64,000 nucleotides of DNA from assembly GCA_963816145.1 (NCBI GenBank), contig CAWFJP010000030.1, positions 320,001-384,000 on the forward strand, read 5' to 3'. The DNA comes from an uncultured delta proteobacterium. GTDB lineage: Bacteria > Desulfobacterota > Binatia > UBA9968. Made by a program: the position numbers and the translations under genes. This document shows positions 2,474 through 27,766 of the stretch, piece after piece (the stretch's first letter is position 1; each line of letters starts with the position of its first letter). Under the pieces are notes generated by a model. The model was not told where the DNA came from and ran no database searches. It saw only the letters and a list, made by a program, of their open reading frames with translations.

Positions 2474-3592
2474 ATGGCGATCGGACTTTCACATGGCGGG
2501 ACCAACGTTTATTCGGCGGGCGAGCGCTCCAATCAACTTTGGGTGGCCACCCAAGATGGACTCGTTCTGTTCGAGCGCGCCGGAATTGGCCAATGGCGCG
2601 AAGCCCAGCGCGCTCTGCGCGGCCAACATATCAGCGCGATCATCTTTGAAAAAACCACCGGCACCATGTTAGCCGGCACCTTCTTCGGCTCGATCCACGC
2701 CAGCACCGACGGCGGCAAGACTTGGGAACGGCGCGATAATGGAATGCCGATCCACGATGTCTACAGCTTGGCGTCCCATGTCATCGACGGCAAAGTCCGC
2801 GTCTACGCCGGCACCCAACCGGCGCATCTGTTCGTCAGCGAAGACTTGGGAATGCATTGGCGCGAGCTGCCGTCGATGCGCGAAGTGCCGAGCGCGACCC
2901 AATGGTCCTTCCCCGCTCCGCCGCATATCGCGCATACCAAATTCATCACTTTCGATCCGTTCGATCAGAACGCGCTCTACGCCTGCGTCGAGCAGGGCGC
3001 ATTTTTGAAGAGCAGCGATTTAGGCAAGAGCTGGAAACAGCTGAACACCGTCGGCCTGTACAAAGACGAAAACCGCCCGGTGGAACATTTCTACGATGTT
3101 CACCGCTGCCTCATCGACCCGCGCAAACCCGATAACATTTACGTCACCGGCGGCGCCGGTTTGTACGTCACCCACAACGGCGGCGGCAGTTGGGAGCGTT
3201 GGACGGCGCCGGATTGGGCGCCCGACGTCTATCCTGACGGTTTTACTTGGAATCCGAAAAATCCCAACATGATGTTCGTCGCCGCCGCCGAGCATAACCC
3301 GGTAACTTGGCGCAAAGCCGGACCGGCGGCCCGCGCCGAGGGCAAAATTTATCGCAGCAAAGACTGCGGCAAGAACTGGGAGCGCTTAAGTGGCGGCCTG
3401 CCCGCCAGCTTGAAGCATGAGTTCGGTGCACTATGCCTCGAGGAGGTCAATGGAACCTGTTCGATCTTCGGCGGCACCACCGGCGGCGAGGTGTTTTGCA
3501 GCGAAGACAACGGCGAGACCTGGACAATGATTACCGACAAATTGGCACCAATCTCAAAGAAGGGACATGAGCGGCTGCTGGCGGCAAGCTAA
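2474..3592 (+). CDS. BNR/Asp-box repeat beta-propeller protein (sialidase/Ycf48-like fold), no signal peptide
   Basis: Repeated S.D.G..W Asp boxes (STDGGKTW, SEDLGMHW, SSDLGKSW, SKDCGKNW, SEDNGETW); GGAGG SD at 2463. Confidence 0.85.
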   Translation: MAIGLSHGGTNVYSAGERSNQLWVATQDGLVLFERAGIGQWREAQRALRGQHISAIIFEKTTGTMLAGTFFGSIHASTDGGKTWERRDNGMPIHDVYSLASHVIDGKVRVYAGTQPAHLFVSEDLGMHWRELPSMREVPSATQWSFPAPPHIAHTKFITFDPFDQNALYACVEQGAFLKSSDLGKSWKQLNTVGLYKDENRPVEHFYDVHRCLIDPRKPDNIYVTGGAGLYVTHNGGGSWERWTAPDWAPDVYPDGFTWNPKNPNMMFVAAAEHNPVTWRKAGPAARAEGKIYRSKDCGKNWERLSGGLPASLKHEFGALCLEEVNGTCSIFGGTTGGEVFCSEDNGETWTMITDKLAPISKKGHERLLAAS

Positions 3593-3629
3593 AAAATGCC
3601 GTCTTTTATGCATCCCCCTCTTCTCCGAT

Positions 3630-3653
3630 TCTCTCCCCCGTGACGGGGGAGAG
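3630..3653. repeat. REP-like palindrome
   Basis: ctctcccccg-tga-cgggggagag perfect hairpin; related elements at 3694-3718/3851-3864 and 10593-10628. Confidence 0.65.
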
Positions 3654-3718
3654 TTAGAGTGGGGGTACTGGTCACATGACGCGGTGTTGAGCACCCCCAT
3701 CTTAATCTTCCCCCGTCG

Positions 3719-3850
3719 AAGGTTGTGTCGTAATGCGTGAATGCCCCACATCTGTCATACCGAGCACAGCGAGGGATCTCGTCTTTTCAGCCACGTACGA
3801 AGAAGAGATTCCTCGGCTTCACCTCGGAATGACAGTTGCGACGCAATCTC
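3719..3850. mobile_element. MITE-like element with internal GTCAT..CGAG/CTCG..ATGAC palindrome
   Basis: Imperfect terminal inverted repeats aaggttgtgtcgtaa / ttgcgacgcaatctc, flanked by TCG on both sides; interrupts a REP-like hairpin. Confidence 0.55.
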
Positions 3851-3917
3851 TCGAGAGGGAGGATACCGGATCGGCCGGTGAACCCTCTCGGCGGAATTTG
3901 AATTTGTCCTATTCGCG

Positions 3918-4667
3918 GTGACTACCTCAACCGACAGGCCCGGCTCAGCCCTCGCCAAGCAATTGCTTGCGCGCAGCGAACAAGATGCCGCCATCACGCC
4001 AATGGACGCTGTGATCGACGCGGCACGCGCAGGTAAATTCACCAACGATCACTGTTTTCGCCTGCTGGCGCGGCTGTGGACGCTCAAGCGCATGCTTTAC
4101 TATGTTTACGGCGGTTGGGCACAGGGCATAAACCTGAACGACTATCCGCCCGGCGTCGCCTATCTCTTCGGCAGGCAGACCTACGACGAGTCGACCCAGG
4201 AGATGCAGTACTGTGACGAGATTCTACGCCGCCGCTTCGTGCTGACGCAGCGCGAGTTATTCGTGCACCCCTACGGCCAGTTCGACACCGCCACCCGGAC
4301 CGGCGCTTATATATTTTGTCTGCGCGCGCTCGCCAACTATCCGCACAACATCCGCATCGCCGCGCTTAATCTCGGACCGAAGGTCATCGAACTCGCCTGG
4401 ACCGAAAGATTCGCCAAATTATTGCCCGATGAATCCATGCAGGCGGTTTTTCACAGCCAACTCGCGGAAACCCGCAGCCATGTCTTGATGGGCCGTCATC
4501 AAGTCGAACAATATGTACAGAAGGAAGTCGACGCCGAATTAGCCCGGCGCTTATGTGCGGAGACCAAGCGCGACTATTTATTCTTTCTCGAAGAAACCGC
4601 CCGCTTCGTCCTCGACATGGCCGAAGAGAAAGCCGGAGAAGTGACGGTACAGGCGGATGTCGACTAA
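3918..4667 (+). CDS. Ferritin-like protein with degenerate diiron ligands (putative structural beta subunit)
   Basis: RQTYDESTQEMQYCDEILRR aligns by eye with RQIWDEVKHGQLHADVLLRG of 5204-5944; second site ETRSH. Confidence 0.65.
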   Translation: MTTSTDRPGSALAKQLLARSEQDAAITPMDAVIDAARAGKFTNDHCFRLLARLWTLKRMLYYVYGGWAQGINLNDYPPGVAYLFGRQTYDESTQEMQYCDEILRRRFVLTQRELFVHPYGQFDTATRTGAYIFCLRALANYPHNIRIAALNLGPKVIELAWTERFAKLLPDESMQAVFHSQLAETRSHVLMGRHQVEQYVQKEVDAELARRLCAETKRDYLFFLEETARFVLDMAEEKAGEVTVQADVD

Positions 4668-4679
4668 CGGAAAACAGCC

Positions 4680-4795
4680 GTTCAAGGGTTCAAGGTTCAA
4701 AGGTTCAACGATTTCCGGATTCCGACCTTGAACAAAACGTTTTGAACGGCTTGAACGATTGGAACCTCTGGAACTTTTGGAACAGCTGGAACTAA
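4680..4795. repeat. Short inverted tandem repeat array (GTTCAAG units then 9-bp TTGAAC/TGGAAC units)
   Basis: ttcaagggttcaaggttcaaaggttcaa ... ttgaacggc ttgaacgat tggaacctc tggaacttt tggaacagc tggaac. Confidence 0.8.
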
Positions 4796-4825
4796 TATAA
4801 TTCGCCTGAACTACCAGAAGTCAAA

Positions 4826-5104
4826 ATGACACCACCGAGACTCAAAATTGATCATGCTAAGTGTACCGAATGCCGCATGTGCTACGTCGTCTGCCGCGAG
4901 ATCGAAATCAATGCAGTTGTCATCGCGCCGACTTCGCAACATTTTTTGGAGATCGATGAGCGCTGCACCTACCCCGGTTGCACGGTGTGCTTGATGTACT
5001 GCCCTGCGGAAGGCTCCATCGTCGAGGCCGCCACCGGCCGCTCCATGGTGCCGCCGCCGCCGGAAGTCTGGACGGAAAATAAACGCTGGCCGCGCATCCC
5101 TTGA
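4826..5104 (+). CDS. 2[4Fe-4S] ferredoxin
   Basis: CTECRMCYVVC and CTYPGCTVCLMYCP cluster motifs. Confidence 0.85.
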   Translation: MTPPRLKIDHAKCTECRMCYVVCREIEINAVVIAPTSQHFLEIDERCTYPGCTVCLMYCPAEGSIVEAATGRSMVPPPPEVWTENKRWPRIP

Positions 5105-5115
5105 CCGAGAACGAA

Positions 5116-5178
5116 TTGAACGGCTTGAACGTTTTGAACGATTGAAACCTCTGGAACAACTGGAACCCTTGGAACCAA
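5116..5178. repeat. 9-bp tandem repeat array (TTGAAC/TGGAAC core)
   Basis: ttgaacggc ttgaacgtt ttgaacgat tgaaacctc tggaacaac tggaaccct tggaac; same unit order as 4742-4792. Confidence 0.8.
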
Positions 5179-5203
5179 GCCAAACATTAAGACGGATTTC
5201 CCC

Positions 5204-5944
5204 ATGCATACCATTCTAAAAGACTTCCTGGAGAAATGGGTCTATCCGACCGGCTTCACCGGCCCCGGAGTCGACTTTCGCCTGCGCCAGACCGAGCGGT
5301 GCTTGCCGCTCTGGGACAAGCTGGTGCTCCAAGCGATCAAGGCCGCTGAGACCGACTTGAAATCCGGCAGCGACGAGTACAAAGCGGCCCGCGCCCGCGG
5401 CGGTTACGCTGCCGAAGGACCGTTCATGTCGTTGAAACAAATGTCGACCCAGATTCTTTCGGTCAGCACCGACCAGCAGCCAAAGTACATCGACCTGCAG
5501 CGCATGCGCGCTCGGCAGATCTGGGACGAGGTCAAACACGGCCAGCTCCACGCCGATGTCCTACTGCGCGGCGGCTTCATTGAGCGCGAAGAAGAATTGA
5601 TGGACGATGCCCGCGCCAATACTCAACCGAAACTTTCTTACTTCGGCATGACCGCCATGTTCCCGCATATTCATCCGCTCGCCCGCGCCGGACAACATTA
5701 TTACAACGAGTCGATGGCTTGTCTCGGCATCGCCGCGACGCTGAGCGTCATCGACGACGAACTGATCCGTCATCAACTGCATAGCCAATCGGCGGAAGAA
5801 TTGATGCACTTTATGGAAGGCAAATATCAGATCGACGCCTACGCGCTCACACCTGAGGACCAGAAACCCATCGAAGCAGTGTTCGACTTCCTGCTACGCC
5901 CCTGGGCCCCTGAACCCAGCCGCGCTCTGGGCGGCAACGCGTAA
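5204..5944 (+). CDS. Ferritin-like diiron-carboxylate protein (putative catalytic subunit)
   Basis: Canonical E ... ExxH ... E ... ExxH order: AAEG, DEVKH, YNES, EELMH. Confidence 0.75.
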   Translation: MHTILKDFLEKWVYPTGFTGPGVDFRLRQTERCLPLWDKLVLQAIKAAETDLKSGSDEYKAARARGGYAAEGPFMSLKQMSTQILSVSTDQQPKYIDLQRMRARQIWDEVKHGQLHADVLLRGGFIEREEELMDDARANTQPKLSYFGMTAMFPHIHPLARAGQHYYNESMACLGIAATLSVIDDELIRHQLHSQSAEELMHFMEGKYQIDAYALTPEDQKPIEAVFDFLLRPWAPEPSRALGGNA

Positions 5945-5957
5945 ATTGAGCACAAAC

Positions 5958-6146
5958 ATGAAAGTGAAAATCGTCGAATCTCTCTGCATCGCCTGCGGCC
6001 TGTGCCGCGAAGTCTGCCCCGAAGGCGCTGTCCATCCCAAGATGCAGGACATCCATCACATGTACGAAGTGATCGAGTACGAATGCACCGGCTGCGCCGA
6101 ATGCCTGCCCTACTGCCCGGAGCCGGGAGCTTTGCTGCAATACTAG
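5958..6146 (+). CDS. 2[4Fe-4S] ferredoxin
   Basis: CIACGLCREVCP and CTGCAECLPYCP. Confidence 0.9.
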   Translation: MKVKIVESLCIACGLCREVCPEGAVHPKMQDIHHMYEVIEYECTGCAECLPYCPEPGALLQY

Positions 6147-6243
6147 AGGCTCCCTGGCTTTTTCTTTTCCTCATCGCTTGCCAATCTTACCTTGACATCT
6201 AATTCGAGTCCGCACTAAAACGGACGGATTCGGAGGGAAGTGT

Positions 6244-7426
6244 ATGGCGAGCGATCCACGCACCCATGGTTTGCATGAGACCTGCAATCAACGCGGCCCC
6301 AACCGGCCGTTATTCACTAAAGGGGGGCCACCCAATTACGTGGAGAAATCGCTGGCCGCCGCCGCCGAGCCGTTCAAAGGCATAACAAGCGACGGCGTCG
6401 TCATTCCCAATCTCTACGGTTTGCACAAGACCGGGATATCGACTCAGGCAATCCGTAAAGCTGCCGAAGCTTTTCTCGCATCGCTGACCGCCGAGCAACG
6501 CGCCAAGACGCTCTTTCCCGTCGACACCGACCAATGGCGCAAGTGGAGCAACATTCATCCGACTTTGTTGCGCCATGGCATGGCGCTCTTCGAGATGAGC
6601 GACGGCCAGCGCGATTGCGCCTTTGCGCTCCTGCGCGAGAGTTTGAGCCAACGGGGTTTCGAAGAAACCCTCGACATCATGCATTTGAATGAAACGGTCC
6701 GAGAAATGACCGGCCGGCTCGATGAGTATGGCGAAGATCTTTATTGGCTGAGCATTATGGGCGCGCCGTCGGCCAGCGAACCCTGGGGCTGGCAGTGGGA
6801 TGGCCATCATTTGATCATCAATTATTTCATCCTCGGCAATCAGATTGTCGTGACACCGACGTTCTTGGGTGCCGAACCGGTGCACGCGGTCAGCGGCAAA
6901 TACGTCGGTGTCCGCGCATTCAAGGGCGACGAAGACCGCGGCCTGGCCTTGTTCCGCGCGCTTTCGGAATCGCAACGGGTCAAAGCGGTGATCGCGCCCG
7001 AGACAACCGGCGAGGACTTTACCACCGCGTTTCGCGACAACCTCGTGCTCGATTACAAAGGCATCCGCTCCGGCGAGTTGTCGAGCGCACAACAGGAACT
7101 GCTGCTCGGCCTGGTGGACTATCATGTCGGCCGCATGCGCGACGGCCATGCGCAGGTCAAGATGGATGAAGTGAAGCGCCATTTGAACGACACGTATTTT
7201 TGCTGGATGGGCGGCGACGCGGCTGGACGGTGTCTTTTACTATCGCGTCCAGAGTCCGGTAATCATCGTCGAGTTCGACCACCAACGCGGCATCGCCTTC
7301 CGCGAGCGCACCAAGCCGTACAAGGACCATATTCACGTCATCCTGCGCACGCCCAACGGCAACGACTACGGCAAAGACTTGCTGCGTCTACATTATCAGC
7401 AAGGCCATCATGCGACCGGGCGGTGA
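6244..7426 (+). pseudogene. DUF3500 family protein, frameshifted near 7220 (pseudogene or sequence error)
   Basis: WSNIHP, PWGWQWDGHHL motifs; the expected C-terminus [16 protein letters not shown]...[19 protein letters not shown] lies in the +1 frame, ending TGA at 7424-7426. Confidence 0.8.
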
Positions 7427-7519
7427 GCATTTGGCATTGAGTCAGCGACGCCGGAGTGAAATTACCATCGCGCCCTGTGCGTGCTTGGCGCGAGCCATTC
7501 CGAGACTGAGGGAGGCATC

Positions 7520-8509
7520 ATGACCGGCAAACCTCGCCATCGACTGATAATTCTCCTTTTGATCGCGTCGGTCGCCGCCAGCGCCCGCGCTGAAAAGATC
7601 CGCACCAGCATTCCCGGCGCCAATCTCAATTATCTCTCGGTTTACAGCGCTGACGAACGCCATTTCTTCCGCGATGAAGGCTTGGAAAATGAAACCATCG
7701 CCATCGGTGGCCCCGCCGGTATCGCCGCTTTGGTGAGCGGCGACGTCGATTTCAGCGGCGCCGGCGGCAGCGGTCTGCGTGGAGCGGTGCGCGGCGCCCC
7801 GCTCAAAGCGATTTTCTATCAGACCGAAAAACCGACCTGGTATTTGGTCGTTCATCCGAGCATCACTCAGGGCGCCGACTTAAAAGGCAAAAAAATTGGC
7901 GTCGCGCTGATCGGCGACAGCGAAGATCGCTTTATCACTTTGTACGCCGAACGGGCGGGCGTGTCGGCGAAGGATATCACCCGGCTATCTCTGGGCACGA
8001 GCATCGGCGACAAAATCCTCGGCGTCAAGACTGGCGCGGTGTCGGCCGTGGTTCTCGATCCCGCCGGCACCGTGGCGGCGGAACGCGAGGGGTTGCGCAA
8101 GCTTGTCTTCATGGGAGATATTTTCACGCTGCCCTTTCAAGGCTATGTCGCCACCCATCAAAAACTCGCCGAGAATCCAGCGCAAGTCAAAAGATGGATT
8201 CGCGCCATGACCCGCTCGCTGCTCTTCGTGCGCGACCGGCCCGAAGACGCCGCCGACATCGCGCTGCGCCGCCTGCGCTTGAGAAATATCACCAAGCCCA
8301 TGCTGGTCGAAGCGATCCGCAGTTACACCCGCGCGTTTCCGCCCGGCGTGCCCGGCGTGCCGTCGGCGGAAGGGGTGAAGAGCATTCTCGAAAACGAACT
8401 GAGAATTCCCTTGAAACTCGATAAGCCGCTGGCGGCGGAGAACTTTTTCGACCTGCGCTGGGCCGAAGAAGTGCGCAAGGAATTTACCGTCAAAGGGACA
8501 AACCAGTAA
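7520..8509 (+). CDS. ABC substrate-binding protein, NMT1/TauA family
   Basis: GGAGG SD, signal peptide (ARA-EK), FFRDEGLE and DLKGKKIGV motifs. Confidence 0.9.
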   Translation: MTGKPRHRLIILLLIASVAASARAEKIRTSIPGANLNYLSVYSADERHFFRDEGLENETIAIGGPAGIAALVSGDVDFSGAGGSGLRGAVRGAPLKAIFYQTEKPTWYLVVHPSITQGADLKGKKIGVALIGDSEDRFITLYAERAGVSAKDITRLSLGTSIGDKILGVKTGAVSAVVLDPAGTVAAEREGLRKLVFMGDIFTLPFQGYVATHQKLAENPAQVKRWIRAMTRSLLFVRDRPEDAADIALRRLRLRNITKPMLVEAIRSYTRAFPPGVPGVPSAEGVKSILENELRIPLKLDKPLAAENFFDLRWAEEVRKEFTVKGTNQ

Positions 8510-8540
8510 AACAGTCGCGTTGACCTAGGGAGACATCTCC

Positions 8541-9530
8541 ATGTGTCAGAGATATCTGCATCGACTCAGCTATGCCGCTCTGATTGCCGTTGAGATCTGG
8601 CTTTGCGCCTCAGCGCCAGCCCAGACAACGCTGAAAAAACTCCGCCTCGGCATTGCCGCCACGAGCGTCGGATTTCTCCCAATCTACGCAGCTCATCAAA
8701 AAGGATTTTACCGAGACGAAGGCATCGATCTGGAAATCATCTTGATGTCGCTGGCCGCCGCCAACAATGCATTCTTCAAAAACGAGATCGAATACAGCGC
8801 TGGGTTGACCGGTCTGGCCCTCGCGGTGGCACGTAATTATCCGGCGAAGATACTGATATTCACTGTCGCCAAACCGCTGCAATCTTTCGTCAGCCGCAAG
8901 GAGATTAAAGAGCCGCGCGATCTGAAAGGCAAGAAAGTCGCCGGCAGCTCACCCGGCGGTTCGGCAACGATCCTCGCCTATCAAGCTTTGAAGCACTTCG
9001 GGCTGGAGCCCGGTAAAGACGTGCAGGTCGTGCCCATGGGCGGCTCGGGCGCGGGGCGCCTCGCGGTGTTGGAACAGGGTGTCGTCGACGCGGCGCTGCT
9101 GTCGGTGCCGGAAAATATCATCGCCGTGAACAAAGGCTACAACGAGCTGATTTTTTTGGGCGATGTCGTGAGTTTCCCGCAAAATGGCTTCGGCACCTCG
9201 GTGACACGCATCCAACAGCAACCGGATGAAGTGTATCGCATGGTGCGAGCCACGCTGCGTGGGTTGCTGTTCGTCACCGACGAGGCAAATCGCGAACAAG
9301 CGCGCGACATTATGATGAAGCAATGGCGCGTCAGCGACCAAAAGCTCGCTGGTGAAATGATCGCCTTTCTCAAACGCGGTCTGGCCAAAGACGCGGTGAT
9401 CAGTCCGCAAGCAGTGCAATACTTCATCGATTTGACCCGCGAGACCTCCAATGTCACGCAACCGATCTCCGGGGCCCAGGTCGTTGACTTCAGTTTTCTC
9501 GAAAAAGCGCGTAAAGAATTGGTTCGGTAG
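8541..9530 (+). CDS. ABC substrate-binding protein, NMT1/TauA family
   Basis: Signal peptide, LPIYAAHQKGFYRDEGIDLE, DLKGKKVAGSSPG. Confidence 0.9.
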   Translation: MCQRYLHRLSYAALIAVEIWLCASAPAQTTLKKLRLGIAATSVGFLPIYAAHQKGFYRDEGIDLEIILMSLAAANNAFFKNEIEYSAGLTGLALAVARNYPAKILIFTVAKPLQSFVSRKEIKEPRDLKGKKVAGSSPGGSATILAYQALKHFGLEPGKDVQVVPMGGSGAGRLAVLEQGVVDAALLSVPENIIAVNKGYNELIFLGDVVSFPQNGFGTSVTRIQQQPDEVYRMVRATLRGLLFVTDEANREQARDIMMKQWRVSDQKLAGEMIAFLKRGLAKDAVISPQAVQYFIDLTRETSNVTQPISGAQVVDFSFLEKARKELVR

Positions 9531-10787: not shown

Positions 10788-11756
10788 ATGAGCGGCACGA
10801 ATGGTAAAAAGGCACTGCACGTCGCGACATTTTCCGGCTGGTACCGTTTCGAGCAGAATGGCAAGCAGTTCACACAGACCAAACGCGATCTTTCGTACTG
10901 GACAATCACCTGCATGACCGTGGACCCGGAAGATCCCAAAGCGCTCTACGCCGGCACCGAACACTCCGGTCTCTTCTACACCAAGGACGCCGGCGCCCAT
11001 TGGCACCGCGCCGATCCGCAGGTGCCGAAAATGTTTCTCTACTCGGCGCTGGCGCTTAACGGCGGCGTCATGGTCGGCACGATACCGTCCGCGGTCTACC
11101 GCAGCACGAACGGCGGCTGGGAAGAACTGGAAGGCGTGAGGTTGCACAGCGCCGGCGCCAATTTCCCGCCGAGTCCTGAGCTGCAGTCGCGCACGCGCTA
11201 CCTCGCCTATGATCCGGAAAACAAGAATCGTCTTTACGCCGGCATCGAAGTCGGCGGCATGGTGCTGAGCGACGACGGCGGCCGCGGCTGGGAACCCTGC
11301 AACGAAGGGCTCACCGATATGGACATCCATGAGATCCTCGCCTCCGAGCAACATAGCGGCATGGTGTTTCTCGCCTGCGGCGAATCCTGCTTCCGCAGCC
11401 CGGACCGCGCCGGCCACTGGGAAAACATCTCGCCGAAAAATCACGACTACGGCATCTCGGTCGCCGAAGACAAAAACGGGGTCATCTATGTCGGTGCCGC
11501 GCACGGCCGGCCGAATCTATGGCTGCGCGAACAAGGCGCAATGTCGGCGATCCTGCGCAGCAGCGACAAAGGCAAGAGCTGGGAAACGGTCATCGACAAT
11601 TTGAACGGCGGCGTCATGCATCTCTGCCCCACGCCCGACGGCAACGGCATGGTCGCCGGGACCTCGGACGGAACGCTGCTCGTCGTCGACGACAGCGGCG
11701 CGCGTGAAGTCGTCAAAGGCCTGCCCTTTGTCACCTCGGTGGAATTGGCAGCTTAA
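10788..11756 (+). CDS. BNR/Asp-box beta-propeller protein, paralog of 2474-3592
   Basis: TKDAGAHW, SDDGGRGW, SPDRAGHW, SSDKGKSW Asp boxes; GGAG SD. Confidence 0.85.
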   Translation: MSGTNGKKALHVATFSGWYRFEQNGKQFTQTKRDLSYWTITCMTVDPEDPKALYAGTEHSGLFYTKDAGAHWHRADPQVPKMFLYSALALNGGVMVGTIPSAVYRSTNGGWEELEGVRLHSAGANFPPSPELQSRTRYLAYDPENKNRLYAGIEVGGMVLSDDGGRGWEPCNEGLTDMDIHEILASEQHSGMVFLACGESCFRSPDRAGHWENISPKNHDYGISVAEDKNGVIYVGAAHGRPNLWLREQGAMSAILRSSDKGKSWETVIDNLNGGVMHLCPTPDGNGMVAGTSDGTLLVVDDSGAREVVKGLPFVTSVELAA

Positions 11757-26740: not shown

Positions 26741-27766
26741 TCAGAGGCTCACCTTCTCAACGTAAAGGTCCTTCAAGAACTTGCTGTTCTTGAGCTCGTC
26801 GAAAAAGCGCGGCTCAGTGATATCGGCGGGTTTGAGCTTGCCGGCGCGCTGGTCCGCCTGGGCGCTGACGTCGATGATCGCCTGAAGCGATTCATCGTTA
26901 AGCTCGGGCAGCGGCCGAAGTTGGGCGGAGTAAGCGTCGTACATGGTGTCGACCGAGATACCTTGAGTGCCGGGAAAGTATTTTTTCAAGATCGCCAAAC
27001 TTTCGCTCCGTTTCGAGATGAAATAATGGATCGCCGCCGCGTATCCTTTCATGAAACGGCGGATGACGTCTTCGTCCCGCTTGATAAACGAGCGCGTCGT
27101 CATCAACAGGTCAGTAAGCACGGGAACGCTTTTGATGTCGATAATCTTGATGCCGGCTTTCTTCGCTTCGGCGGCGATATCCTCCCGAAACGGCACTCCC
27201 TGCACCAGATTTTTTGACAGTGCTAACGCCCGTTGCGGCGCCAGGCCGGCAGCGACCATTTCAACATCCTTGGCCGGATCTAACCCGGCGCGCCGCAGCA
27301 TGACGCGGGCAATGAGATCCGAGCGCGCGCCGAGCGCGGAAACACCGACTTTTTGACCCTTTAAATCTTTGACCGCTTGGATGGATGAAGTGACACCCAT
27401 GCCGTACTGATCGAAGCTGACATGGGAGCCAATAACCGTGACATCACCGCCGCTCGCCACTGGCTGCACCACTGCAAGCGGATTGCCGAAACCGATCAAC
27501 AGGTCGACGCCAAGCAGCGATTGCACGCCGGCGCTCAGCGTGTCGCGGATCGGTAGCTCTTCGATGTCGAGGCCATGCTGTTTGAACAATCCCCCGTCGA
27601 CACCGATGTAAGCCACCGCTGTGCCGATTTCCCAACCGGCATAAGCCAAGCGCAGCTTCTTCGGACCATCAGCAGCCCGAGAAACGCCGGCGGCAAAAAC
27701 AACCAATCCAACTGCCAACCCCATCGAATAAATCCGAGGGAAGTTAAATCGACGAAAAATCATCAT
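26741..27766 (-). CDS. ABC substrate-binding protein, NMT1/TauA family
   Basis: Signal peptide, GLFKQHGLDIE, DLKGQKVGVS, AGLDPAKDV. Confidence 0.88.
   Translation of the reverse strand: MMIFRRFNFPRIYSMGLAVGLVVFAAGVSRAADGPKKLRLAYAGWEIGTAVAYIGVDGGLFKQHGLDIEELPIRDTLSAGVQSLLGVDLLIGFGNPLAVVQPVASGGDVTVIGSHVSFDQYGMGVTSSIQAVKDLKGQKVGVSALGARSDLIARVMLRRAGLDPAKDVEMVAAGLAPQRALALSKNLVQGVPFREDIAAEAKKAGIKIIDIKSVPVLTDLLMTTRSFIKRDEDVIRRFMKGYAAAIHYFISKRSESLAILKKYFPGTQGISVDTMYDAYSAQLRPLPELNDESLQAIIDVSAQADQRAGKLKPADITEPRFFDELKNSKFLKDLYVEKVSL

Follow-up and report, generated by a model that had tools for sequence, protein, structure and literature searches.

We analyzed a window of 64,000 nucleotides (nt) from an uncultured delta proteobacterium of the class Binatia (GenBank assembly GCA_963816145.1, contig CAWFJP010000030.1, positions 320,001 to 384,000 of the forward strand), in which four plus-strand open reading frames (ORFs) fill positions 3918 to 6146, or about 2.2 kb. 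They encode two related proteins of about 250 amino acids (aa), here called subunits A and B, and two small ferredoxins, fd1 and fd2:

3918 to 4667, plus strand: subunit A, 249 aa, GTG start
4826 to 5104, plus strand: fd1, 92 aa
5204 to 5944, plus strand: subunit B, 246 aa
5946 to 6146, plus strand: fd2, 66 aa from a TTG start, 62 aa if translation starts at the ATG at 5958

An earlier note on this DNA, made from the letters alone, had called four ORFs here and read them as a candidate minimal diiron oxygenase system; we found all four where it had placed them, all on the plus strand. The genome that contains the window carries one copy each of A, fd1, B, and fd2.

The second of the larger proteins, B, had been credited with a full E/ExxH/E/ExxH set of metal ligands, and we found this set at E71 (in AAEG), E109 and H112 (in DEVKH), E169 (in NES), and E199 and H202 (in EELMH), forming two E...ExxH motifs in which E and ExxH are 38 and 30 residues apart. 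There were 317 homologs of B at an E value of ≤0.001 among 1296 candidates. A profile of B, run against 1.84 billion cluster representatives, returned 110 matches, mostly fragments of the same family. The same search also detected seven distant full-length relatives (P0291, P0298, P0301, P0331, P0337, P0340, and P0345; E values from 7e-17 to 6e-4; 17 to 26% identity), which belong to no Pfam family. When 29 B sequences were aligned with these seven relatives (n = 36), the sole invariant columns were E71, E109, H112, D118, E169, Q195, E199, H202, and Q220, and the same nine columns are invariant in all 47 B sequences from the window and from 46 loci described below (for E71, in the 46 of 46 that cover it). 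The proposed ligand set is thus invariant in all B sequences and in the seven relatives; H190 of B is not conserved among the latter. On this pattern, B is a putative catalytic diiron-carboxylate subunit.

Subunits A and B had been described as paralogs. By BLASTP they are 23% identical over 132 aa (E value of 8e-7), and the hhalign value for the pair was 42% with shallow profiles and 99.1% (E value of 1.2e-18, 207 columns) with deeper ones, which bears out the paralogy. The helix RQxxDE...D..LR that the two were said to share is present in both, and the motifs DESTQ and ETRSH are present in the A protein of the window. In the profile alignment, the ligand positions of B correspond to the following residues of A:

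B E71: A R58, in 43 of 43 A sequences
B E109: A E or D91, with E in 27 sequences and D in 16
B H112: A H or Q94, with H in 31 sequences and Q in 12 (Q in this window)
B E169: A K155, in 46 of 46 sequences
B E199: A T185, in 46 of 46 sequences
B H202: A H188, in 46 of 46 sequences

The statement that A has lost the ligand set therefore holds for three carboxylates, which are replaced invariantly, but not for the site as a whole, since H188 is always kept and the first A motif reads (E/D)xxH in 31 of 43 sequences; the remaining 12 have the (E/D)xxQ type seen in the window. E158 and E184 are further residues of the partial site. Judged by these columns, A cannot build a canonical diiron site, because R58, K155, and T185 occupy three carboxylate-ligand positions, and a partial site survives. 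We conclude that A is probably a non-catalytic scaffold subunit; the proposed combination of a catalytic and a ligand-degenerate paralog is supported in silico by the ligand columns and by hhalign. We identified 769 A homologs among 2751 candidates, none of them named. Where homologs of A and B do have names, these are "hypothetical protein," with the exception of one B-fd2 fusion (P0042), which is called "ferredoxin."

The two paralogs had also been proposed to form a heterodimer. Prediction of the A-B complex gave an ipSAE score of 0.81 (0.81, 0.83, and 0.76 in individual runs), compared to 0.00 for the best of three controls, with a predicted local distance difference test (pLDDT) score of 88 for each of the two proteins; 95% or more of the contacts agreed between runs. 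Among solved complexes, 116 of 157 reach this ipSAE mark, as do 2 of 215 mismatched pairs; these counts are only rough for A and B because our own alignments were used. The predicted interface consists of residues 58 to 96 and 111 to 122 of A and residues 72 to 117 and 129 to 139 of B. In both proteins these segments correspond to the first two ligand helices, which would make the dimer pseudo-symmetric. Recall of a known complex by the predictor is unlikely because no sequence-similar solved relative exists. A and B are thus predicted to form a heterodimer, a result that supports the proposal in silico only.

Each paralog was said to be followed by its own 2x[4Fe-4S] ferredoxin, and both small proteins match Fer4 dicluster models above the Pfam cut-offs: fd1 matches Fer4_21 (36.3 bits; cut-off, 35), Fer4_6, and Fer4_2, and fd2 matches Fer4 (41.5 bits), Fer4_7, Fer4_9, and Fer4_21. 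Each contains two Cys motifs, as in clostridial-type 2x[4Fe-4S] ferredoxins, in which the motif is CxxCxxCxxxC(P). fd1 has a C-terminal extension, its second motif is CxxxxCxxCxxxCP, and its identity among the 45 loci in which it is present is 60 to 92%. The true start of fd2 is probably the ATG at 5958, because orthologs mostly align from there. The fd2 start overlaps or abuts the B stop in many loci, and in one protein (P0042, 319 aa) B and fd2 are fused in frame. A second apparent B-fd2 fusion, P0054, was rejected, as it looks like a frameshifted gene call, and among 2239 candidates of 432 to 2000 aa there was no scoring match to suggest fused forms of B of greater length. From the synteny, the overlapping stop and start codons, and the one B-fd2 fusion, we infer that fd1 and fd2 would reduce the enzyme directly.

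The alternating arrangement of paralogs and ferredoxins is conserved beyond the window. In a synteny scan of 185,579 species, each represented by a single genome, we found 46 species-level loci in at least four phyla, in metagenome-assembled genomes of Binatia or "delta proteobacterium," Methylomirabilota/Rokubacteria, Dehalococcoidia/Chloroflexota, Gammaproteobacteria (Immundisolibacteraceae), and a few others. The order A-fd1-B-fd2, claimed earlier as a tandem, held in 43 of the 46 loci, including 3 in which A is truncated by a contig end, and the contigs break off within the other 3 loci (L019, L036, and L039). Every uncut locus contains both A and B, and in the Methylomirabilota loci the cassette genes abut or overlap, with overlapping stops and starts. 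Occurrence of the cassette is rare and patchy: of 151 genomes sampled from the class of the window, 2 have it (the genome of the window being one of them), within the genus it was found in 1 of 3 additional genomes, and in a sample of 251 Chloroflexota genomes only the starting genome had a member of the superfamily. A profile of the distant relatives also gave two weak extra matches (G123:C13:295442-295906, E value of 4e-5, and G125:C127:4709-5143, E value of 2e-4), which may represent additional superfamily members that have diverged further; both genomes also carry the cassette. The stretch is present in soil, wetland, and sediment metagenomes from 19 studies. In addition, three RNA libraries contain short contigs that align to portions of A, fd1, B, and fd2 with 90 to 99% identity; this is weak evidence of expression, as such libraries can carry DNA, and it cannot show transcript or operon structure.

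The cassette had been suggested to have arisen by duplication of a two-gene unit, and relatives with a single enzyme gene bear on this suggestion. In the clade of P0301, a ferredoxin gene of 74 to 89 codons immediately precedes a lone ligand-complete gene at all four loci with room for it, the other four loci of the clade starting too close to the gene to show an upstream ferredoxin. The ferredoxin of this clade is nearer to fd2 (41%, E value of 2e-13) than to fd1 (33%, E value of 2e-6). Within the genome of the window, fd1 and fd2 are reciprocal best non-self matches, by a small margin (38.9 bits versus 34.3 to 34.7 bits). In a quick tree with long branches, A (support of 100) and B (99) are each monophyletic, and ligand-complete single relatives fall on both the A and the B sides. 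A two-gene ancestral unit is plausible in view of the single ferredoxin-plus-enzyme relatives and the reciprocal match of fd1 and fd2, but the relatives have the ferredoxin before the enzyme gene and lie on both sides of the tree. Because of this placement and this difference in gene order, any A/B duplication would have been ancient.

Beyond the four genes, the following neighboring features were found in the window:

2474 to 3592, plus strand: BNR/Asp-box beta-propeller protein, 372 aa, with Ycf48/sortilin-like repeats (Pfam Sortilin-Vps10, BNR, and PSII_BNR)
4668 to 4825, plus strand: A-fd1 spacer, with T(G/T)GAAC arrays of 9-nt period and inverted GTTCAA copies upstream
5105 to 5203, plus strand: fd1-B spacer, with the same 9-nt-period hexamer array
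6244 to 7440, plus strand: DUF3500 protein (Pfam PF12006, E value of 2.3e-78)

In 25 of 28 Binatia-type loci the BNR gene immediately precedes A in the same orientation, and the remaining 3 are contig-cut. None of the 18 loci from other phyla has this gene, which makes it a lineage-specific fifth gene. Its product looks cytoplasmic, and the gap between it and A is 0 to 55 nt in some loci. A DUF3500 gene follows the cassette in 11 of the 28 Binatia-type loci. The window contains a second BNR/Asp-box paralog at 10788 to 11756, which is 27% identical to the copy at 2474 to 3592, and a tblastn search of the genome with the BNR protein gave 13 match rows, with 48% and 41% identity at the best further places. 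There are also at least five NMT1/THI5-type periplasmic binding-protein genes in 28 kb, plus two of the SBP_bac_6/11 type (253 to 2306, 7481 to 9530, and 26741 to 27766); with the adjacent Rieske oxygenase, glutathione S-transferase, and amidase genes, they form a catabolic neighborhood rich in transporters.

The long gap between the BNR gene and A is filled by two inverted-repeat elements (3631 to 3717 and 3739 to 3848), and this gap is much shorter in related loci. The second inverted repeat (about 3740 to 3873) is a multi-copy, miniature inverted-repeat transposable element-like sequence, because its depth in a soil metagenome run was 563, compared to about 8 for its flanks. The two spacers inside the cassette contain sense-strand tandem T(G/T)GAAC arrays at 4680 to 4792 and 5116 to 5175, which have a strict 9-nt period with conserved hexamers and variable 3-nt spacers. 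The 64-kb window has these arrays nowhere but in the two cassette spacers (9 matches versus 0.04 expected), and they occur at the same spacers in many Binatia-type loci. We rejected them as a cassette-specific regulatory element: the genome has 233 T(G/T)GAAC arrays of at least three copies across most contigs, and only 9 have a Shine-Dalgarno-like motif a few nucleotides downstream. These arrays are a lineage-wide intergenic repeat family. A search of positions 3500 to 6400 against Rfam gave no match at E values up to 1. A promoter scan found no convincing site before A and one promoter-like site upstream of the BNR gene, and a terminator scan found none after fd2; both scans were uninformative.

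In other lineages, the neighbors of the cassette and of its relatives include genes for small-molecule metabolism. Among the Methylomirabilota loci, a gene for a type III coenzyme A (CoA)-transferase lies just upstream in L031 and one for an adenylation-carrier-thioesterase protein lies downstream in L029. At a separate locus, L038, the cassette is flanked by Rieske oxygenase and MarR genes. Neighbors of the P0301-clade genes encode alpha/beta-hydrolase, SnoaL, CoA-transferase III, enoyl-CoA hydratase, and Mo-hydroxylase proteins, and the window itself is rich in catabolic genes (LigXa-type Rieske oxygenases, glutathione S-transferase, and amidases). This context points to small-molecule catabolism, possibly of CoA thioesters, the class of substrate on which PaaAC and BoxB act. 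At the two Dehalococcoidia loci annotated with Pfam (L042:537-4474 and L044:2166-4769), genes for ZnuA, an ATP-binding cassette (ABC) ATPase, and an ABC-3 permease lie directly upstream on the same strand, and fd2 is followed by an ORF of about 210 aa that has no annotation; the ZnuA-type importer may hint at the metal used by the enzyme.

Taking together the genes, their order, the paralogy of A and B, the ligand pattern, and the in silico A-B interface, all of which are observed here, the best-supported reading is a ferredoxin-driven heterodimeric diiron oxygenase or oxidase of an unclassified family, and we consider this reading reasonably probable. The four genes would then encode one self-contained redox enzyme. 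B would be the catalytic subunit, with a dinuclear, probably diiron, cofactor held by four Glu and two His residues, and A, an ancient paralog, would pair with B through the first two ligand helices to give an alpha-beta heterodimer, as PaaC does with PaaA. As dedicated carriers, fd1 and fd2 would re-reduce the diiron center, and the reduced center would activate O2 and hydroxylate, epoxidize, or desaturate a small organic substrate, maybe a catabolic intermediate or a CoA thioester if the context of the relatives is a guide. In this proposal we infer the identity of the metal, the use of O2, the flow of electrons from fd1 and fd2, and the substrate. A bolder form, which we regard as possible but doubtful, is a minimal flavin-free multicomponent oxygenase of a new family in which A would have been retained to dock fd1 while fd2 sits on B, such that four [4Fe-4S] clusters wire one diiron site across the A-B interface; with it, soil bacteria would oxidize a catabolic substrate, possibly a CoA thioester, with low-potential ferredoxin electrons.

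Several results weigh against a ferredoxin-driven diiron oxygenase. Neither A nor B matches a Pfam or NCBIfam family, those of the ferritin clan included, and the 36 aligned members have no such match at E values up to 10. The scanned ORFs (253 to 29776) include no reductase to serve the ferredoxins, and no pathway context outside the four genes is consistent across phyla. The complex predictor comes with the caution that proteins closely related to a true partner may pass as well. The AlphaFold2 (AF2) model of B, which has extra N- and C-terminal helices, has a pLDDT score of 73, with residues 60 to 160 below 60; that of A (pLDDT score of 44) was unusable for a fold search. All structural matches of B are below the reliability level of the tool for helical bundles, and they are slightly better for heme-oxygenase-like than for ferritin-like proteins, as detailed below. 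Finally, an Atlas lead to DUF455 (PF04305; 0.89 and 0.91, to a cluster with 30% DUF455 members) was not confirmed: hmmscan gave no match and hhalign gave 0.8% to one DUF455 protein. Searches of PDB sequences with A, B, and three profiles returned nothing better than E values of 0.47 to 2, and the inability of the earlier note to assign the genes to a named system agrees with the outcome of the Pfam, NCBIfam, and PDB sequence searches.

The same note called both proteins ferritin-like, a term with which the ligand pattern of B agrees but for which the fold search gave a tie between ferritin-like and heme-oxygenase-like proteins (Z scores of 6 to 8). One alternative is that B is a heme-oxygenase-like diiron oxidase (HDO) of the UndA, SznF, BesC, HrmI, and CADD kind, with the A partner and the ferredoxin supply unchanged; we consider this unlikely. 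In a wide structural search with VIA-align, the top ranks for B were TenA (Z score of 8.0, root mean square deviation of 3.9, 147 residues aligned), HrmI (7.6), CADD (7.3), and UndA (6.5), with BesC at 5.6, over residues 18 to 241, and a second structural look at this middling model gave the same ranking; over both, TenA scored 7.8 to 8.0, the heme-oxygenase-like proteins as a group scored 5.4 to 8.0 over 145 to 164 residues, and the best-ranked of them 6.4 to 8.0. MiaE (Z score of 6.5) and aldehyde-deformylating oxygenase (ADO)-like chains (6.2 to 6.3), which are ferritin-like, are within about 1.5 Z units of the top, however, and by the measure of the tool are near-tied with it, and the best Foldseek match of the B model is the ferritin-like tRNA hydroxylase MiaE (E value of 0.1, probability of 0.96). 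No Pfam match to PF14518 or PF03070 was found for B.

The ligands argue against the HDO assignment. We compared the ligand pattern of B with MiaE, PF14518, and PaaA/C proteins sampled from genomes. In the HDO-type PF14518 sample (n = 12), the invariant residues are ExxxxH (H83), E137, and H168xxxD172xxH175, a His3-carboxylate3 set, and the MiaE sample has the pattern ExxH, E, ExxH. B has a His2-Glu4 set of two ExxH motifs and two lone Glu residues, as in the two-ExxH ferritin-like proteins. In a preprint on BesC, ferritin-like diiron oxygenases (FDOs) are described as His2-3(Glu/Asp)4 coordinated, and HDOs are described as taking three ligands from one helix and as having a dynamic core helix. 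Our PF14518 sample agrees with that preprint in having three ligands on one helix, whereas B has no HxxxD/ExxH motif and its H190 is not kept in the distant relatives; the low model confidence around E71 does recall the dynamic core helix described there. In hhalign comparisons of the B profile with our own MiaE, PF14518, and PaaA/C alignments, all values were ≤1.6% (0.9% for the PaaA sample), in a test without power, as the MiaE-versus-PaaA control also gave only 1.1%. In these non-significant alignments, the B motifs are in register with ExxH, E, and ExxH of MiaE, and both B ExxH motifs are in register with the ExxH motifs of the PaaA sample. Because a His2-Glu4 set with two ExxH motifs matches the FDO pattern, we read B as ferritin-like in its putative ligand architecture, with the fold class unproven.

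The cassette resembles several known systems in part. B shares with HDOs a similar size, an all-helical structure, and, putatively, dinuclear iron. To our knowledge, no characterized HDO has been described together with a dead paralogous subunit and a pair of ferredoxin genes. B is also in the helical size class of about 200 to 250 aa of the small FDOs MiaE and ADO and has two E...ExxH motifs as they do, but the cassette has no significant sequence or profile similarity to these enzymes. MiaE and ADO act as single subunits, and ADO uses ferredoxin as a reductant; the cassette, in contrast, has a ligand-degenerate paralog as a partner and two dedicated 2x[4Fe-4S] ferredoxin genes. In its working, though not in membership, the cassette is like the phenylacetyl-CoA epoxidase PaaABC(D)E and the bacterial multicomponent monooxygenases (BMMs), where a catalytic diiron subunit stands beside a homologous ligand-degenerate one, here in a predicted heterodimer, and where genes for large and small subunits alternate. 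A CoA-linked context, possible for relatives of the cassette, is a further likeness to Paa. Coupling proteins, PaaB/PaaD, and flavin/[2Fe-2S] reductases are components of the Paa and BMM systems, whereas the small proteins of the cassette are 2x[4Fe-4S] ferredoxins, and no PaaE-type flavin/[2Fe-2S] reductase was found among the ORFs of the scanned region (253 to 29776). Neither A nor B matches PF05138, as Paa proteins would, and both are much smaller than BMM alpha subunits. The single ferredoxin-plus-enzyme units of the seven distant relatives have the same invariant ligand set; these differ in that no A-type partner is seen at their loci and, for the P0301 clade, in that the ferredoxin gene is upstream of the enzyme gene rather than downstream. 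In the literature we found no description of an A-fd1-B-fd2 cassette.

A second alternative, which we judge to be about as improbable as an HDO, is that the ferredoxins feed a detoxification or metal-handling protein, either a rubrerythrin-like peroxidase or O2 reductase or a ferroxidase or iron store from which iron is released by ferredoxin, as from bacterioferritin by Bfd. The four genes do travel as a self-contained unit with changing neighbors, the metal importer lies beside the two Dehalococcoidia cassettes, the best PDB profile match is the ferritin BfrB (E value of 2, non-significant), and helices of rubrerythrin and encapsulated ferritin score at a Z of about 5. Yet the rare and patchy occurrence is unlike that of a general stress or iron-storage function, the relatives are located in catabolic clusters, the proteins of about 250 aa have additional N- and C-terminal helices, and a permanently dead partner is typical of oxygenases rather than of cage-forming ferritins. 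Least probable of all is that B acts alone or as a homodimer, with A a separate metallochaperone, regulator, or docking or maturation factor for fd1 and the A-B interface a reflection of paralogy only: the caution about close cousins and the partial site of A (E/D91, H94 in 31 of 43 sequences, E158, E184, and H188), which could bind one metal, speak for it, but A and B occur together in every uncut locus, their trees are broadly congruent, at 23% identity they are far from close cousins, and the interface lies on equivalent helices with scores of 0.76 to 0.83 versus 0.00 for controls.

Diiron oxygenases perform hard oxidations, such as C-H hydroxylation, epoxidation of aromatic CoA esters, and formation of alkanes and alkenes. 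If the reading of a ferredoxin-driven heterodimeric enzyme is true, the cassette would represent an unannotated family in which a catalytic subunit is joined by a pseudo-subunit and a pair of dedicated 2x[4Fe-4S] ferredoxins takes the place of a flavin/[2Fe-2S] reductase, carried by abundant uncultured lineages of soil, wetland, and groundwater (Binatia-type, Methylomirabilota, and Dehalococcoidia). As the cassette is small and looks self-contained, it should be easy to express and test. If its substrate were identified, several hundred database proteins would gain a functional assignment, and the cassette might yield a compact biocatalyst.

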